Source: a virus
Taxonomy: Duplodnaviria > Caudoviricetes
Reading direction: 5' to 3' (one strand)
DNA: 47,757 bases
IMG/VR virus record: IMGVR_UViG_3300038809_000016
Span: 1 to 47,757 of that record
Shown here: in pieces, positions 1,299-30,356 of the stretch
Layout: each line of letters starts with the position of its first letter
How positions within the stretch are numbered: position 1 is the stretch's first letter
Notes under the pieces: model-generated
What the model was told of the DNA's origin: nothing
The model's input: only the letters and a program-made list of their open reading frames with translations
Database searches by the model: none
Position numbers and translations under genes: made by a program

Positions 1299-2192
1299 TC
1301 ACGCCGCGGCGGTCTCGCCCTCGATCAAGCCGAGTTGGCGCGCGATGCGCTCCACCTCGCTCCAGGCGATGCGGTGGCAGCCCGCGACAAAATCGCCGCA
1401 CGCCTCGATCCGGTCAACCGTGAAGGCGCCGACGCGGAGGCTGTGACCGTCGCGCACCCACGCTTCGCCCTTGTCGCGGCACGCCTTGACGAAGCGGAAC
1501 ACGCGGACGGCATGGGACAGGGGAACGTCCGCGCCCAACGAGGTCTCCAGGGTCTCGCCCTTGACGCGAAGGAGGGCGGAACCGTCCGGGGCGCGGCCGT
1601 GATAGTAGGCGGTCGGCTCGCCGGACAGCCACGCCTCGCGGAGCTTGGTTTCGCGCTCGAATGTGGCGCGGGCCGCTTCCATGCGCGCCTCGCGGGCCGC
1701 CGCTTCGGCGCGGGCGACACGCTCCAGTTGCTCGGCGACGGCGACGCCTAGGGTCTCCAGGGTGACGGGCGCGCGGTCCAGTCCGAACGTCTCCACCATG
1801 CGCGTCGCGATGCGGCAGTGTTGCACGGCGCGGTCAAGGTGAATGTCGCCGTACTTGCGGGCGCGTTGCGCCTTGCCGACGCTCTCGCGCGCCGACATCA
1901 GTTCACGGTCATAGTCCGCGACGGTCACGCCCGCTTCGGGGCTTTCGACCATGAACACGTCAAGGTGAGAGCAGGCCGAAAGGACTTCCGAACGGTGCTG
2001 CCCCGTGGAAACGGAACGCTTCTCGTTGTTCACGAAAACGACCGTGCGGCCGTCATGCTCCGCGATGCGGGCGAGAAGGAAATGGGTGCCCCAAGAGTAG
2101 ATGCGCGGGCCCTGATAGAACATGTTCGCGCCGTTGCGGTTACGGCCGGTCTGATGCGCGAAGGCGTGAGCGACTTGGGCGTGAGAGGACAT
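1299..2192 (-). CDS. Hypothetical early phage protein
   Basis: 297 aa, GGAG RBS, own promoter at 2240-2268; ends AAA. Confidence 0.8.
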   Translation of the reverse strand: MSSHAQVAHAFAHQTGRNRNGANMFYQGPRIYSWGTHFLLARIAEHDGRTVVFVNNEKRSVSTGQHRSEVLSACSHLDVFMVESPEAGVTVADYDRELMSARESVGKAQRARKYGDIHLDRAVQHCRIATRMVETFGLDRAPVTLETLGVAVAEQLERVARAEAAAREARMEAARATFERETKLREAWLSGEPTAYYHGRAPDGSALLRVKGETLETSLGADVPLSHAVRVFRFVKACRDKGEAWVRDGHSLRVGAFTVDRIEACGDFVAGCHRIAWSEVERIARQLGLIEGETAAA

Positions 2193-2239
2193 GGCGTGGT
2201 CTCCAGAGGTGAGGGGCGCCGCAACGGCGCCGTAAGGGT

Positions 2240-2268
2240 GTTCTAAGCGCGCACTTGAGCGGTGTCAA
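2240..2268 (-). promoter_or_regulatory. sigma70-type promoter TTGACA-N17-TAGAAC
   Basis: Consensus -35 with 17-bp spacing, upstream of 1299..2192. Confidence 0.7.
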
Positions 2269-2636
2269 GCGTGGCGAGCGTGCGCGCGGACAAGATTTCC
2301 GCCGAACGCCGCGGCGGGGCTCTCGAAGTGCGGCACGTCGGCATGGTCGGACGCTTCATCCGCCGGGAAGGCGTCGGCGAGCTTCCAAGCGCCGTTGTGT
2401 TCGCTCCAGCCGGGCGAGCGCGGCGGATCGTAAACGACAGCTTGCGCCGCGCCCTCGCCCGCTTCGTCAACGTGGAGATTGCGCGCGATGTAAGGGCGCC
2501 CCGTCTTAGTGAATTGCGAAATCGTGGCGAGGCGCGCCAAGATGTATTCGGACCCGGCGGGCGCCTCGACAGTGAACGCGGGGAATAGACGCGACAGGCC
2601 GTCATTGCCGTTGCCGTAGGAGATTGCGAAGCGCAT
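2265..2636 (-). CDS. Hypothetical protein
   Basis: AAAGGT RBS, ATG; packed in operon. Confidence 0.65.
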   Translation of the reverse strand: MRFAISYGNGNDGLSRLFPAFTVEAPAGSEYILARLATISQFTKTGRPYIARNLHVDEAGEGAAQAVVYDPPRSPGWSEHNGAWKLADAFPADEASDHADVPHFESPAAAFGGNLVRAHARHA

Positions 2637-2647
2637 GGCGTAACCTT

Positions 2648-2842
2648 TCAGACGAAGCGGCCGTCGCCGCGGGGGAGCTTGACACCCTTCACGATGTCAC
2701 GGGGAAACAGGGCCTTGAAGGCCTCGCGCGCCTCGCGAGGTGTCGCGGCGCAAATGTCGCCTTCGAAGGCGATGCGGCGACGCCCCGCAGGGGGCGCCTC
2801 GCTATGGGTCCAGAGGACGACGAAGCGGCGAAGCGCGGCCAC
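2648..2842 (-). CDS. Small hypothetical protein
   Basis: Tightly packed in the leftward operon. Confidence 0.55.
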   Translation of the reverse strand: MAALRRFVVLWTHSEAPPAGRRRIAFEGDICAATPREAREAFKALFPRDIVKGVKLPRGDGRFV

Positions 2843-4060: not shown

Positions 4061-4585
4061 ATGAGCACAGAACTTCCCTCCCGAGACGCCCTGATCGAGC
4101 TTTTCGACTATGAGCCCCTGACCGGGCTCTTGAGGTGGCGCGAGCGACCCGGCCGACCCGATTGGAACGCTCAGCACGCCGGAAAGCCGGCAGGCGGTGT
4201 CCCCGACGATGAGGGCTATCTGCGATCGGAGGTGCTGATCGAGGGTCGTCGCTGGCGTCTCCGGCTCCACCGCGTCGCCTTCAAGATCGCGACGGGCCTG
4301 GAGCCGCCCTTGGTCGATCACGAGAACGGCGTCCGGTCGGACAACCGCGAGGCGAACCTGCGGGAGGCCACCGTCCTGACCTCGCGGTGGAACAGCTCCG
4401 GCCGGAAGGGGCGCGACCTGCCGAAAGGGGTCTACCGACAGGGCCACCGCTACGCCGCCAAGGCGACGGTCAACGGCGAGCGGCTCAACTTCGGCACCTT
4501 CGCGACGGTCCACGAGGCCCATTGCGCCTACATGGCCGGGGTTGCTCCGCTGCACGGCGAATTTACCCGTGGAGTTTTCGCTTGA
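4061..4585 (+). CDS. HNH endonuclease with AP2-like C-terminal domain
   Basis: LFDYEPLTGLLRW; HRVAF...VDHENGVRSDNREANLRE; LPKGVY...FGTFATVHEAH. Confidence 0.9.
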   Translation: MSTELPSRDALIELFDYEPLTGLLRWRERPGRPDWNAQHAGKPAGGVPDDEGYLRSEVLIEGRRWRLRLHRVAFKIATGLEPPLVDHENGVRSDNREANLREATVLTSRWNSSGRKGRDLPKGVYRQGHRYAAKATVNGERLNFGTFATVHEAHCAYMAGVAPLHGEFTRGVFA

Positions 4586-4786: not shown

Positions 4787-4990
4787 ATGCACTCAGACAA
4801 GCCCGAAGACGCCGCTTTCGCCGCCTTGGTCGCAGCGCAATCCGAGCTGGAGAAGCTCCGGCAGCGGACTAATCACCGCGAGGCTGGCCGGGCGTTCGCG
4901 CTCGTGAAGACGAAGCTGGATGAAGCCCGGTTGTGGCTGGACGAAGCGGTCGCCGAAGCGGGTGACACGCTGTCCGCGGAGCAGAACTGA
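4787..4990 (+). CDS. Acb2/Tad1-like helical-hairpin protein (putative nucleotide sponge)
   Basis: 67 aa; GRAFALVKTKLDEARLWL resembles the R-x-x-[SA]-L-x-x-T-K-L-[ED]-E-A-x-x-W hairpin motif. Confidence 0.55.
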   Translation: MHSDKPEDAAFAALVAAQSELEKLRQRTNHREAGRAFALVKTKLDEARLWLDEAVAEAGDTLSAEQN

Positions 4991-5337
4991 TGCGCGCGGC
5001 GACGATCGAGCGGCTGTTCGTGCTCCAGGGCGCAGCGCAGCGGCGGGCGACCTTCGGGGCGGACAGAGAGCTGGCTCAGATCGTCGCCGACGTGATCTCG
5101 ACGCTGGTGGCAGAGGCCACCGTAGCGTCCCGGGAACCGCCAGGAGCCTATCCGTGGATAGGGCTGGCGGTCGGGGACGAGTTCGTTCTCCCGGGAGCGG
5201 TCGATCCGGCCGTGAAGCGGCGGGCGCTGACGAACGTGTCGTCCGCAGGTATAGCGTGGGCGAAAAGGAACGCTCCGGGGCGCAAATTCAGCGTCCGGAC
5301 GTGCGAAGACGGCATTCGCGTGCGCCGTGTGGCGTGA
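4990..5337 (+). CDS. Hypothetical protein
   Basis: TGATG coupling to the upstream gene; YPW..LAVGDEF and KFSVRTCEDGIRVRRV. Confidence 0.7.
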   Translation: MRAATIERLFVLQGAAQRRATFGADRELAQIVADVISTLVAEATVASREPPGAYPWIGLAVGDEFVLPGAVDPAVKRRALTNVSSAGIAWAKRNAPGRKFSVRTCEDGIRVRRVA

Positions 5338-5356
5338 AACAGTAGAGGAGAGCGAC

Positions 5357-6352
5357 ATGAAGCCTGCCAAGACCCCGAAAAACGACCTCGAATACCTTCA
5401 CCCGTTCTTCCTGATCGGCCGTCCGGGCGAAAAGCCTTGCCGCGAGCTGCGCGGGATCAGTGCGATCCGGTTCCGCGGCGAGCAGATCACCGTTCCGGCG
5501 CTCCCGCGGCCGTCGCACGCGGTGGCGAGCGTCCAGCAGCGTACTTTCTTCGTCCGGCGCGAGTTCTACGGCGAGTTCGAAGGGCTTTGGATCGAGGTGC
5601 CGGCCGAACACCCGCTCTGGGACCGCGCGGACCCGATGTCCGGGGCGTTTTGGGACTTCGGGGTGGACGCCGAGCTGGTAGAGCGGGGTTCGCCGGCCAG
5701 GACGGAGCGTCCGAAGCTCCCTCGGCGCTCGCCGGCCACGGTCCACCCGATGTGCGGCCTGCATACGTGCTTCGAGGACGACGAGTGCGCCTTTCCGATG
5801 GGGTGCGTGGGCGAGCACCTCGACCGGACGGCCGCTTTCAAGGCCGGCGAGCCCGATCCGATGGCCTCCCCGGGCAAGTCGGACGCCTCGATCGCCCTGG
5901 CGAAGGTCGCCTCCGGCGAAAACGAGGACATGCGGGACCGGATCGCGGCTGCGAACCTCCTTCTGGCCGGCCAGACGCCCGGCTACGGCGTCTGCGCGAC
6001 CCGGAACGCCTTCGAGAGCGCGCTGGCGTTCCCCGATCGGCCCGTCAGGCCGGAGCGGCCGGCCAAGTTCTGCGCCGGACAGGCCGTCCCGATCCGTCCG
6101 GACGACATGCTCGATCCGATGGACCCCGACGAGTACAACTGGCGGGCCGAAGGGCGCGATCAGGGCTGGACGGCGCCGGATCGCCGGCCCTGGTGGAAGC
6201 GGCTGCCGATCATCCGCCACGCGGCGGCTCTCCGTTTCTCCTGGCAGGTCCACAACTACGCCGGAGGCTGGGCCGCGGTCGGGATCGGGGTCGGCGGCCC
6301 GCATCCGCAAGATCTCTGGGTCGTGGAGGGCTACTGGCATGGCTACATCTGA
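5357..6352 (+). CDS. Hypothetical protein
   Basis: GAGGAG RBS; 331 aa; patchwork, Trp-rich. Confidence 0.7.
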   Translation: MKPAKTPKNDLEYLHPFFLIGRPGEKPCRELRGISAIRFRGEQITVPALPRPSHAVASVQQRTFFVRREFYGEFEGLWIEVPAEHPLWDRADPMSGAFWDFGVDAELVERGSPARTERPKLPRRSPATVHPMCGLHTCFEDDECAFPMGCVGEHLDRTAAFKAGEPDPMASPGKSDASIALAKVASGENEDMRDRIAAANLLLAGQTPGYGVCATRNAFESALAFPDRPVRPERPAKFCAGQAVPIRPDDMLDPMDPDEYNWRAEGRDQGWTAPDRRPWWKRLPIIRHAAALRFSWQVHNYAGGWAAVGIGVGGPHPQDLWVVEGYWHGYI

Positions 6353-6527
6353 TCCGCAGGCGAAGTGTCTGCCCGGTCTGGACGAGCGCGGCATGGTGCT
6401 GGCGCTCGTATCGCTCAAGGCGCAGGAAGGTGTCGGCGTCGGCGACCTGATCGACCTCCTGATCCGATATTTCGAGATCAAGGGGCGCGAGCGGCCGTAC
6501 CACTTCCCGCCTGTAGCCGGAGACTGA
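6339..6527 (+). CDS. Small hypothetical protein
   Basis: GGAGG RBS; overlaps the upstream stop. Confidence 0.6.
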   Translation: MATSDPQAKCLPGLDERGMVLALVSLKAQEGVGVGDLIDLLIRYFEIKGRERPYHFPPVAGD

Positions 6528-6528
6528 C

Positions 6529-6786
6529 GTGGCGGACCCGAAATACACGCATCTCGACCCGGTGCGGGAGGACTTCTTGGACTTCCCGACCGCTTGGGAG
6601 ATCCAAGACCGGGCGCTCGACCGCGGCCCGGCGCTGGAGCATCACCCCCGATGCTCCAGCGTCCCCGGCTGGCACAAGCTGAGCGGCCGGGGCCTCCTCT
6701 GCGACTGCCAAGCGGTCCCCGACGAGTGGCGGCGCCTCGTGAAGGTGCAACAAGCCGCTCGGGCTGCTAAGGAAAGCTGCGGTTGA
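6529..6786 (+). CDS. Hypothetical protein (H/C-rich, possible Zn binding)
   Basis: GGAG RBS; HHPRCS...LLCDC. Confidence 0.65.
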   Translation: MADPKYTHLDPVREDFLDFPTAWEIQDRALDRGPALEHHPRCSSVPGWHKLSGRGLLCDCQAVPDEWRRLVKVQQAARAAKESCG

Positions 6787-6812
6787 CTGCCGCAGCGGCA
6801 CAGGAGACTATC

Positions 6813-7238
6813 ATGCGGTTCCCGAATACGGCGGCGCTCCTCGAACAAGAGGGGCTCGACGTGCTAAAGGCACTCATCGCCGAACCGGCGGTGAAGGCAA
6901 CGATCGAAGCGATCCTCAAGGAGCTTTACATGGCAAGCGTGAAAGAACTGACCGACGCGCTCAACAGCGCCAAGGCCTCGGTGGACACCCTCGTCGGCAA
7001 GGTCGGCCAGACCGGCGGCGGGATCGACCCGTCCGACCTCGATCCGGTCCTCAAGGAGATCACCGACCTCCGCTCGACCGTCGAGGCGATGTCCGCCTCG
7101 CTCCCGGGCAAGCAGGAGGCCACCGACCAGGGCGCTTCCGGCTCGACCGCCGGGACGGCCGCCCAGCTCGGCGGCGTCGGCGCCGCGGGCGCCGAGGTCG
7201 GCCAGGGCCAGACGGCCACGGGCGTCTCGGGCGTCTAA
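6813..7238 (+). CDS. Hypothetical coiled-coil protein with second in-frame start at 6930
   Basis: AGGAG RBS at both ATG 6813 and ATG 6930. Confidence 0.7.
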   Translation: MRFPNTAALLEQEGLDVLKALIAEPAVKATIEAILKELYMASVKELTDALNSAKASVDTLVGKVGQTGGGIDPSDLDPVLKEITDLRSTVEAMSASLPGKQEATDQGASGSTAGTAAQLGGVGAAGAEVGQGQTATGVSGV

Positions 7239-7245
7239 GACTACC

Positions 7246-7277
7246 GGACGCCCCGTCAATCCTGGCGGGGCGTTCTC
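7246..7277 (+). terminator. Stem-loop, possible terminator
   Basis: ggacgccccgtca...tggcggggcgttc after the stop; weak U tail. Confidence 0.4.
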
Positions 7278-7305
7278 CCACTCAGAGCAGTATCGGGAGA
7301 GCACA

Positions 7306-7713
7306 ATGCCCTACGGCAATGACCAGAGCGCGCGTCGCGGCCAACATTCGATCGAGCTGATCGCGCGGACCTGCCACGAGACCAATCGAGCCATTTGCGA
7401 GGCTTTCGGCGACTTCTCGCAAGTCTGCTGGGACCACGCGAAGGACTGGCAGCGCCAGTCCGCAATAGCCGGAGTGCTCTACGCGCTGGAGCATCCCGAC
7501 GCGACGCCCGAGGACCAGCATGAAGCCTGGGCGAAGCAGAAGCGCGAGGCCGGGTGGGTCTACGGCACCGTCAAGGACGAGGGCCAGAAGACGCACCCCT
7601 GTCTCGTCCCCTACGCGCAGCTCCCGCCGAACCAGCGGGTCAAGGACGGCGTGTTCAAAGCCATCGTGAACACGCTGACGATGAAGCGGGTGCCGATGGA
7701 GCCCATAGGCTAG
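7306..7713 (+). CDS. RyR (ryanodine receptor repeat) domain protein
   Basis: HEAWAKQKREAGWVYGTVKDEGQKTHPCLVPYAQLP..QRVKD matches the RyR repeat signature. Confidence 0.85.
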   Translation: MPYGNDQSARRGQHSIELIARTCHETNRAICEAFGDFSQVCWDHAKDWQRQSAIAGVLYALEHPDATPEDQHEAWAKQKREAGWVYGTVKDEGQKTHPCLVPYAQLPPNQRVKDGVFKAIVNTLTMKRVPMEPIG

Positions 7714-7721
7714 AGGAAGTC

Positions 7722-8048
7722 ATGCAGAACGACGAACAGACGATCGAGGCGCTGATCCAGTCCAAGAACCTGACGGCGCCTAGACTGACGCCGGACGATA
7801 TCGACGCGCAGATCGTGGACGAGCAATACCACCAGTGGCCCGGAACGACCTTCACGACCTGTCTGCTGACGCTCAAGAACGGCTACAACGTCTCGGGCGA
7901 GAGCGCCGCGGTCTCTCCGGAGAACTTCGACGCCGAGATCGGCCAGAAGGTCGCCCGCCGGAACGCCCGGGAGAAGATCTGGAGCCTCCAGGGCTATCTC
8001 CTCAAGGAGTGCATCTGCCGGGAGAACGCCGCCAAGGCGCAGGGTTGA
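7722..8048 (+). CDS. N4 Gp49/Sf6 Gp66 family protein (Acb4-like putative sponge)
   Basis: APRLTPDDID; TTCLLTLKNGYNVSGESAAVSPENFDAEIG..ARRNA..KIWSLQGYLL. Confidence 0.85.
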   Translation: MQNDEQTIEALIQSKNLTAPRLTPDDIDAQIVDEQYHQWPGTTFTTCLLTLKNGYNVSGESAAVSPENFDAEIGQKVARRNAREKIWSLQGYLLKECICRENAAKAQG

Positions 8049-8119
8049 CGCCGCACGAGGGGGCAAGTACAGACCTGAAAGGGTCTTGGCAGGCCCCCTC
8101 GTCACTGCTCAGGTGAAAG

Positions 8120-8164
8120 AGGCGGTGCGAAGGCTACACAGCTTTCGTGCCGCCTTTTCCTTTT
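8120..8164 (+). terminator. Strong intrinsic terminator
   Basis: aggcggtgcgaaggct-acac-agctttcgtgccgcct then ttt-cc-tttt. Confidence 0.75.
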
Positions 8165-8199
8165 GGGCGGGTCGAAAGCACCGGATCGAGGTGTTTACG

Positions 8200-9519
8200 A
8201 TGGCCCTGCCCGCATTCCTTCGCCGCCTCTACAGCTTCACTGCGTTTCAGCAGAGCCAGGGCGACAACAGCTTTCCCGGGACGCAGCTCGATACTGAGCT
8301 GGACCAGATCGACAACACGGTAACGGGGCTGCTGGAGCAGCTCGGCGGCCTTCTCCGTCCGGACGGCAAGCTCGTCAACGGGATCGTCACCCGGAACAGC
8401 CTGTCCGCGGACCTGACGATCGGCGTCGGCGCGGCGCGGCCGTGGAAGTCCACGGTGCCCTACCTCGACGGCGAGACAGTCACCCGCGGCTACCTGATCT
8501 ACCAAGCGATCCAGGCCTCGCTCGGCGTGGACCCGGCGGCCGACGTGAACGGCACGACATGGGAGATCGTCGCGGACCTGTCCCAGGCGGTCACGATCGC
8601 GGCCGGCGGCGTGGTCACGGCCTCGATCGCGGACGGTGCCGTGACGAATGCCAAGCTCGCCGGGGGCATCACGGGCGACAAGCTCGTGGACGCGACGATC
8701 CCGCCGGGCAAGATCCAGCCCGGCCTCGGCGTCGTCCCGGTTGGCGCTCGTATCGGCTTCGCCGGTATCACGCCGCCCGCCGGATGGGCCTTCGAGAATG
8801 GCGCGGCCGTCTCGCGCCAGACCTACGCCGCCCTGTTCGCGGCGATCACCTTGACCTTCAAGGCGGACGTGACGATCGGACAGACGGTCCTCGCCAACCC
8901 CTCCCGCTCGATCCAGGGGCTCGGGCTCGGGGCGGCCTATATCGAGGGCCCCGGCATCCCGCTCGGCAGCCGCCTCGCCAATGACGCGGACGGCAACCTC
9001 CAGCTTAACGCCGCGGCCACCGGGACCGCCGCCCAGGCGACCATTCGGGTCTGCCCCTACGGCAACGGCGACGGCGCCACCACCTTCAACCTGCCGGACA
9101 GCCGCGGGCGTGCCGACTTCGGCCGCGACAATATGGGTGGGGCGGGTGCCGGCCGTCTGACGCAAACCGTGGACGGCTCCGCGCTCACGAACGGCGCCTT
9201 TGACGCCGGGGCGGGTGCCGAGCGCGCGACGATCGGCATTAACAACCTGCCGACTACACTGCCGGGCGGCAAGGTCACAGTGACCTATCCGAACTACAAC
9301 ACGCCTACATACGGGCTGCTGCAAAGTCTTGCTGCTGGCGGCGGCAGTATTCCAATCGACGGATTGTGGCGACAGCTTGCGCCTGGACAGTCGGTGCCCG
9401 CCGAAGCTGCACGAGAGTTTAACGTGGCGGGCGCTGCGAACCCTGGCGGCTCGCAGCCGTTCAATGTTCTTCCGCCCGCCTCGATCACGAATAAGATCAT
9501 CTTCCACGGAGTGCTGTAA
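8200..9519 (+). CDS. Tail fibre with tail-collar domain
   Basis: VPVGARIGFAG..PPAGW..NGAAVSRQTYAALFAAI and YGNGDGATTFNLPDSRGR; C-terminal PFNVLPP...NKII. Confidence 0.85.
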   Translation: MALPAFLRRLYSFTAFQQSQGDNSFPGTQLDTELDQIDNTVTGLLEQLGGLLRPDGKLVNGIVTRNSLSADLTIGVGAARPWKSTVPYLDGETVTRGYLIYQAIQASLGVDPAADVNGTTWEIVADLSQAVTIAAGGVVTASIADGAVTNAKLAGGITGDKLVDATIPPGKIQPGLGVVPVGARIGFAGITPPAGWAFENGAAVSRQTYAALFAAITLTFKADVTIGQTVLANPSRSIQGLGLGAAYIEGPGIPLGSRLANDADGNLQLNAAATGTAAQATIRVCPYGNGDGATTFNLPDSRGRADFGRDNMGGAGAGRLTQTVDGSALTNGAFDAGAGAERATIGINNLPTTLPGGKVTVTYPNYNTPTYGLLQSLAAGGGSIPIDGLWRQLAPGQSVPAEAAREFNVAGAANPGGSQPFNVLPPASITNKIIFHGVL

Positions 9520-29348: not shown

Positions 29349-30356
29349 TCAGAACCGGAGATCCTCGACGGCGGCGCGGCCGTCGTCGGGGCTGTGCTTC
29401 GCGTAGACCTGCTCGACCATCGCCACGGTGTTCCCGAGGATGCCGGCGATCTTCCACAACGGGACGCCCTTGCGGGCCATCCACGTCGCCGCGGTGTGCC
29501 GCAGGACGTGGGGCGTCACGTCCTCCAGGCCGGCCTCGCGCGCCGCCCGCAGGACGCCCGTGTAGGCCTCTGTCGAGCTGCCGAGGACGAATTGGCCGGT
29601 CCGCTCCCGGTGCGCCCGCTGGAGGATCTCCAGCAGCGTCGAGCTGATCGGCACGCTGGCGTTGCGCTTGCCGGCCGCGGCCGAGGAGCCGGCGCGGGCG
29701 AAGTGGATGACCCGGGTCTCGAAGTCGATCTGGTCCCAGGTCAGCGTCTCGATCGCCCGGCGGCGCGCTCCGGTCGCCAGAGCTATCCACAAGAACCGCT
29801 CGGTCCGCGACAACTTGTCCATATCGGCGCGCTGCGACGTGGCGGCGGCGAACAGCCGGCGCGCCTCGTCCTGGGACAGCCACCGATCGCGGGCGTCGGG
29901 CGGCGAGGGCAGGCGGATGTGCGGGCGCTCGCCGGCCGGCAGCTTCCGGGCGCGCTCGGCGTGCGAGATGCAGGCCAGCACCTTCGTCAGCTCCAGGCGG
30001 GCGGTCGAGAGCTGGGCGCCGTTCCGGAGCCGGGCCTGGAGGTAGGCGTCGAAATAGTCCTGATCGAGACTAACGACCGCCCGGCCGCCGAAGTAGTTGA
30101 GCAGCCGCGGGGCCATGCCGCGCAGCCGGATCGCCGTGGGCGTCCCGCGGCAGCTCTCGAAATAGGCCGGCCAGATGTCGGCGAACGTGACGCCGGCAGC
30201 GGGCTCGTCGCGGACGCCCGAGAGCCAGCGGCCGAACGCCTTCTCGGCGGCGGCCTGCTCGTCGGTCCCGGTGGACTTCCGGCAGCTCCGGCCGCCGGAC
30301 ATGAAGTGGATGTAGAAGCGGCCGTTGGCGGCCCGGTCGAGGTAGGGGACGCTCAC
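29349..30356 (-). CDS. int: Tyrosine recombinase/integrase
   Basis: TGARR (catalytic R), TPHVLRHTAATW (HxxR), LGNT..MV..VYA (Y). Confidence 0.92.
   Translation of the reverse strand: MSVPYLDRAANGRFYIHFMSGGRSCRKSTGTDEQAAAEKAFGRWLSGVRDEPAAGVTFADIWPAYFESCRGTPTAIRLRGMAPRLLNYFGGRAVVSLDQDYFDAYLQARLRNGAQLSTARLELTKVLACISHAERARKLPAGERPHIRLPSPPDARDRWLSQDEARRLFAAATSQRADMDKLSRTERFLWIALATGARRRAIETLTWDQIDFETRVIHFARAGSSAAAGKRNASVPISSTLLEILQRAHRERTGQFVLGSSTEAYTGVLRAAREAGLEDVTPHVLRHTAATWMARKGVPLWKIAGILGNTVAMVEQVYAKHSPDDGRAAVEDLRF

Follow-up and report, generated by a model that had tools for sequence, protein, structure and literature searches.

We wanted to know what role a stand-alone RyR-domain gene plays in a phage genome in which the next gene, starting after a gap of only 8 nt, belongs to the Gp49/Gp66 family. 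The window, by which we mean the whole stretch of 47,757 bases analysed, is a near-complete phage record (99% by CheckV) that carries genes for terminase, portal, capsid, tail, DNA polymerase A, helicase and integrase; judged by the capsid protein, the isolate closest to it is Rhizobium phage RHph_N65 (60%). A first-pass annotation had proposed the pair as a candidate new immune-signal sponge, in which the RyR protein sequesters a nucleotide second messenger or mimics a host immune domain. The reading we prefer, to which we assign a probability of roughly 0.8, is that the pair is an optional counter-defence cassette consisting of a predicted non-cleaving RyR sponge for Thoeris signals and a predicted Acb4-family sponge for CBASS signals. 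The features to which the text refers are as follows.

4787..4990 (+): 67-aa predicted helical-hairpin gene with a sub-threshold match to PF24729 (Acb2/Tad1 hairpin)
7250..7271 (+): GC-rich stem-loop 3' of the stop codon of the 6813 gene, from RNA folding
7272..7302 (+): predicted stem-loop upstream of the RyR gene, from RNA folding and sequence
7306..7713 (+): stand-alone RyR-domain gene, 135 aa, PF02026 E 2.1e-13
7722..8048 (+): Acb4-family (Gp49/Gp66, PF13876) gene, 108 aa, Pfam E 1.7e-29
8055..8170 (+): pair of long stem-loops separating the Acb4-family gene from the tail-collar gene

Family membership and genome setting of the gene pair

The RyR open reading frame scores 50.8 bits against PF02026 (cut-off 27.4), and both family assignments of the first-pass annotation, together with the 8-nt spacing between the RyR stop codon (TAG, 7711-7713) and the Acb4-family start codon (ATG, 7722), were confirmed. 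Its assignment of Acb4 to the Gp49/66 family also agrees with the available part of the Acb4 preprint (10.1101/2024.12.30.630793), which defines the Acb4 family as PF13876 and reports binding of 3'3'-cGAMP by all eight diverse homologues tested. Further, a profile built from 42 homologues of the 7722 protein matched the structure of SPO1 Acb4 (gp1.3, PDB 9E4W) with an E of 2.4e-9, and the two proteins belong to one family by Pfam and by profile search. They are nevertheless distant, and most of the base- and phosphate-contact residues differ: among the SPO1 contacts Lys-36, Phe-48, Glu-49, Val-56, Tyr-57, Phe-62, Asn-63, Ile-66, and Thr-70, only Phe-62 and Ile-66 are identical in the aligned stretch (2/9), Phe-48 is replaced by Tyr, and Lys-36, Glu-49, Tyr-57, and Thr-70 are changed. 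Because of this low identity at the contacts, the ligand of the 7722 protein is uncertain; we note that the protein lies near proteobacterial Acb4 homologues, which, according to the same part of the preprint, bind 3'3'-cAA as well.

The pair sits between the terminase small subunit and tail-collar genes, with the 6813 gene as its direct upstream neighbour, and the 8-nt gap contains a purine-rich, ribosome-binding-like stretch upstream of the Acb4-family ATG. We considered whether the split into two genes could be an assembly error and rejected this explanation, as two sequencing runs of a single sample, possibly the one from which the window came, yielded contigs identical to it over positions 6800-8300. 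In addition, a variant contig of a different study spans 7525-7800 without a gap and differs at 22 letters, none of its 15 listed differences falling within 7676-7724. A programmed frameshift joining the two reading frames was likewise rejected, as no classic slippery heptamer occurs within 7551-7722. A PADLOC search of the cassette and its neighbours returned no match save a weak one to Cmr1 for the 6813 gene (E 0.009). Elsewhere in the window, a phage integrase family gene (29349-30302, minus strand, PF00589) suggests a temperate phage, and two HNH endonuclease genes lie at 4061 and 37911; a search of genome contigs found no prophage relative of the window capsid gene.

Sponge or glycosidase

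Phage RyR proteins were described as anti-Thoeris factors in two preprints of May-June 2026 (PMC13232231; 10.64898/2026.06.04.730250, the latter available in part), and our literature search found nothing further on the family; the sponge can, accordingly, no longer be called new. The RyDEP preprint (PMC13232231) reports one glycosidase, gp78 of mycobacteriophage DyoEdafos, alongside non-cleaving sponge homologues, with binding by six and cleavage by none of eight further homologues. The available part of the second preprint (10.64898/2026.06.04.730250) describes RyR Tad, gp68 of Pectobacterium phage vB_PatP_CB1, as a sponge for 1''-3' gcADPR with a KD of 43 nM, and reports that mutating His-129, Trp-132, Lys-147, His-154, Lys-170, or Asp-171 weakens gcADPR binding. 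In our alignment, these six residues correspond to His-72, Trp-75, Lys-90, His-97, Lys-113, and Asp-114 of the window protein, all of them kept, and the RyDEP pocket residues His-75, Trp-78, His-100, and Asp-117 are likewise present. The window protein is 46% identical to CB1 gp68 and 30% identical to DyoEdafos gp78; across the RyR domain, its identity to the tested sponges is 41-52% (46-52% in the case of RyR Tad). An AlphaFold2 model (mean pLDDT 91.7) has four helices (residues 7-33, 47-62, 68-81, and 108-125), and its best structural match is Repeat12 of human RyR3 (Z 10.0, rmsd 3.7, 124 aligned residues), the first non-RyR row reaching a Z of only 6.6.

We next consider whether the window protein is a glycosidase of the RyDEP type, converting 2'/3'cADPR to linear ADPR with His-72 as base and Asp-114 as acid. 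These two residues align with the catalytic His-75 and Asp-117 of the DyoEdafos enzyme, which is also a stand-alone protein of similar length; however, the His/Asp pair is common to both subtypes, including all the non-cleaving homologues aligned. To separate the subtypes, we used a tree from a quick search (87 rows, 118 columns), in which the phage genes taken for the homologues of the RyDEP supplement were matched by eye (H1, H4, and H8) or are close stand-ins (H5, H6, and H7), and in which 11 DyoEdafos-like loci (one of them DyoEdafos itself and two identical in the domain) gave 10 rows. These 10 rows split off from all others with an SH-aLRT of 100, and the window protein falls on the opposite side of the branch, with H4 and CB1 gp68. 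At 15 contrast columns, where at least 9 of the 10 enzyme-clade rows differ from at least 3 of the 4 non-cleaving homologues, the window protein has the non-cleaving residue at 14 and the enzyme residue at none. The enzyme-clade side of this signature reflects one tested enzyme, and the sponge-side loci were fetched by patterns from the relatives of the window protein, which biases the columns, although this does not apply to the four non-cleaving homologues. Specifically, Tyr-25, Gln-54, Tyr-82, Arg-93, Asp-102, and Glu-113 of DyoEdafos gp78 correspond to His-24, Ser-52, Lys-79, Lys-90, Cys-99, and Gln-110 of the window protein, the counterpart of Gln-54 varying between Ser and Ala with the alignment used.

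The genome context of the enzyme also differs, in that the window has no NARP1 operon: the genome contains no NAPRTase (PF04095), and DyoEdafos Adps and Namat (gp77 and gp79) gave no tblastn match in the window or in 80 sponge-side loci, whereas matches were found at 3 of the 10 enzyme-clade loci, within 2.5 kb. Together with the cleavage result for the eight tested homologues (0/8), these observations make the glycosidase reading quite improbable. Given the six conserved pocket residues, the 14 of 15 contrast columns and the absence of NARP1 genes, we conclude that the window RyR protein is most likely a non-cleaving 2'/3'-cADPR sponge, as predicted from sequence. The 15 columns also provide a testable list for a puzzle of the RyDEP preprint, namely that some members cleave and others just bind. 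We note that eight loci (L091-L098) encode DyoEdafos-like RyR proteins outside mycobacteriophage NARP1 operons, and these are candidates for further glycosidases.

The RyR protein could also be a sponge that has a different main ligand in the host of this phage, such as canonical cADPR, a different TIR product, or another NAD-derived or adenine nucleotide. Its identity to the tested sponges within the domain reaches just 41-52%, the top fold matches are RyR3 Repeat12 structures with bound ATP analogues, and, from the available part of its preprint, RyR Tad binds cADPR and 2'-gcADPR too, below 1 uM. Against this, the gcADPR contacts defined by mutation are all conserved, and both characterised sponge homologues prefer 3'cADPR (PMC13232231). 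We therefore regard a different main ligand as improbable.

Under the preferred cassette reading, the six residues above would line a predicted pocket in which the RyR protein would capture 3'cADPR and 2'cADPR, both of them Thoeris signals, and the Acb4-family protein would bind cyclic dinucleotides of CBASS, for example 3'3'-cGAMP. The two genes would be co-expressed, and each protein would act on its own signal with no need of its partner. By analogy with the homologue papers (some available in part), ligand binding, an RyR homodimer formed through helices 1 and 4, an Acb4 homotetramer, and phage rescue may carry over to the window proteins. Sequestration of a second messenger, as the first-pass annotation proposed, is consistent with the nucleotide-signal binding reported for phage RyR homologues; the class of ligand is most likely the cADPR isomers of Thoeris and not cyclic dinucleotides generally, and mimicry of a host immune domain is not required as an explanation. 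The proposed mechanism is probably right but already published, and what is new here is one more likely sponge pair of described families and no new mechanism.

In comparison with RyR Tad, the window protein shares PF02026, the six pocket residues and, with H4 and H7, the same side of the tree and a site among anti-signalling genes. It differs from gp68, as described in the available part of that preprint, in that gp68 has an extra N-terminal domain in its dimer whereas the window protein, like H4, stands alone; in that the gp68 locus is an N4-like primase hotspot whereas the window is an integrase-carrying 48-kb phage; and in that a separate Acb4-family gene follows the window RyR gene directly. 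With DyoEdafos gp78 the window protein shares the Pfam family, the His/Trp/His/Asp pocket and the stand-alone size, and it belongs to another clade.

RyR neighbours, fusions and the variable slot

A single-protein pattern scan of viral contigs (P0001) gave zero matches, and an alignment scan gave 570 relatives, from which the best 80 loci were used. After near-duplicates and the shortest contigs were dropped, 50 of these 80 were kept for whole-record Pfam searches. PF13876 was found on 3 of the 50 contigs, PF24729 over its cut-off on 8, PF11195 on 1, and PF21825 on none. As expected by the first-pass annotation, RyR genes are associated with sponge genes: of the 12 sponge-family hits, 9 are on the RyR strand and at most 1 kb away from the RyR match, where 0.67 would be expected under uniform placement (p 5e-10), a value that becomes p = 0.04 if both genes are taken to be confined to a 5-kb accessory region. 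However, RyR is usually without these sponge neighbours, since no hit over cut-off to any of the four families was obtained on 38 of the 50 contigs, and the pairing with Acb4, present on 3/50, is optional. Tad2 was rejected as an RyR neighbour (1/50 contigs, 42 kb away), as was Sequestin (0/50 over cut-off).

Fusions point in the same direction as the clustering. Among 62 RyR homologues of 74-237 aa, two carry PF13876 and three carry PF24729 (one of these under the cut-off on rescan). Fusions of RyR with PF13876 occur in P0017, P0034, phiEa2809, SFP10, and L099, and are known in either order, the phiEa2809 and SFP10 proteins having the order PF13876-RyR; fusions with PF24729 occur in P0011, P0053, and L079. 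Sponge fusions also served as the discovery route for Sequestin, according to the available part of its preprint (10.1101/2025.07.12.664507), a part in which the term "RyR" does not occur. The Acb4-Tad2 and Acb4-Sequestin fusions (same preprint; Ab09 gp59) resemble the window pair in joining two sponge families that cover CBASS and Thoeris, and differ in the anti-Thoeris partner, which is an RyR domain in the window and Tad2 or Sequestin in those fusions. The main text of the RyDEP preprint never names Acb4 and so makes no connection between it and RyR, but the supplement includes the long proteins H6 and H8, whose full-length forms have an N-terminal extension, as in RyR-Acb4 fusions. Independently of the two preprints, the genome context bears out the view that RyR domains serve phages as a general sponge building block, recombined with domains of the Acb4 and Acb2/Tad1 families. 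Small additions made here are the RyR-sponge clustering on 50 contigs and the RyR-Acb4 fusions, one of which lies in the matching slot of a close relative.

Some other RyR genes have different partners. In L007 (4013-4507, plus strand), RyR is fused to a T7 gp5.9-like RecBCD-inhibitor domain (PF25708, E 1.7e-13). The gene that comes after an Arthrobacter phage RyR gene (L085, 1981-2268) is annotated as a PnuC-like nicotinamide riboside transporter, and two RyR homologues (P0057 and P0062) have a hydrophobic N-terminal extension; these last two observations may possibly reflect a second link to NAD metabolism.

The terminase gene was used to collect relatives of the window (44 loci), and six of these, at 73-76% identity, were taken as close relatives. 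The slot, which we define as running from the 6813 homologue to the tail-collar gene, varies in its occupancy. L099 has a single 245-aa RyR-Acb4 fusion (2052-2789, plus strand) in the slot and gene order of the window; Acb4 occurs without RyR in L100, L103, and L142; and in L101 and L102 the slot is taken instead by a large gene on the opposite strand. Whole-record searches of five of the six close relatives found RyR in one and PF13876 in four. The large gene of L101 (3540-5777, minus strand) encodes a 745-aa NACHT NTPase (PF05729, E 6e-8), and that of L102 (4425-5798, minus strand) a 457-aa protein without a Pfam or PADLOC match; the two are possibly phage-borne defence cargo that swaps with anti-defence cargo. 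The RyR domain of L099 is 41% identical to that of the window and ranks 137th of 139. The trees set the two apart, which would suggest separate acquisition; we do not claim this, as a common origin was not rejected in a one-clade test (p-AU 0.086).

The variable occupancy of the slot raises the question of whether the RyR gene simply rides along with Acb4 as a passenger, its product being decayed or unable to bind and playing no part in anti-defence. It is missing from 5/6 close relatives at this position, and 2/8 tested homologues did not bind (PMC13232231). However, its frame and pocket are intact, its GC3 of 0.87 is in line with the core genes, it is retained in the variant from another study, and one close relative has an RyR-Acb4 fusion. 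We consider a passenger role very improbable.

Flanking hairpins and the 4787 gene

The pair is bounded by RNA hairpins, as the first-pass annotation had observed. In a folding test, regions 7236-7306, 8046-8110, and 8105-8170 gave z scores of -4.0, -3.7, and -6.6, respectively, with 0/200 shuffles as good in each case, and two control stretches nearby gave -1.05 and -1.24. The first region contains the stem-loops at 7250-7271 and 7272-7302, and the other two correspond to the long stem-loops downstream of the pair. The 3' arm of the 7272-7302 stem-loop pairs with the purine-rich, ribosome-binding-like stretch of the RyR gene (7295-7301), and it is possible that this stem-loop acts as a translational brake on the RyR gene. 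The second of the two downstream stem-loops, which has a U-rich arm at its end, is a possible terminator. A simple terminator scan did not call the flanking hairpins, and Rfam had no match in the window. No RNA data set was among the sequencing runs listed as carrying the sequence.

The first-pass annotation had counted the 4787 gene, together with the pair, as a three-sponge cluster. The RyR and Acb4-family genes belong to described sponge families; the 4787 gene lies 2.3 kb and several open reading frames upstream of the pair, and its score against PF24729 is under the cut-off (19.3 bits against 27). Relatives of this gene are few, with six among 1.84 billion representatives and one more match without an aligned stretch. 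All seven family members match PF24729 at E ≤ 0.1, albeit weakly (best 0.00059), and in the ESM Atlas PF24729 occurs in 10% and 31% of the members of the top two clusters for the 4787 protein, which match with a score of 0.88. A profile of the family searched against the PDB gave T4 Vs.4 (E 1.1) and Tad1 (E 1.7), ranked under four unrelated rows. A literature search on the PF24729 hairpin (Acb2, Tad1) yielded no paper describing short members that stand alone, and the available part of the TadIV-1 paper (PMC13243611) has no bearing on the gene. From these sequence matches, the 4787 gene appears to be a fair lead as a candidate third sponge.

A broader reading would make the slot a swappable immunity cassette of this phage group, with RyR and Acb4 having come together on more than one occasion (as separate genes in the window, as a fusion in L099 with its 41% identical RyR) and working as one two-signal unit, with a hairpin that hides the ribosome-binding site of the RyR gene, and would have the 4787 gene found a minimal Acb2/Tad1-like sponge subfamily with a ligand of its own. 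We regard this combination as tentative and, on balance, doubtful. The stretch that separates the 4787 gene from the RyR gene (4990-7238) contains several small open reading frames that have no Pfam or PHROG match. With respect to conservation in this part of the genome, homologues of the 4787 gene and of the C-terminal part of the 5357 gene each occur in five of the six close relatives, and the 6813 gene is present in all six.
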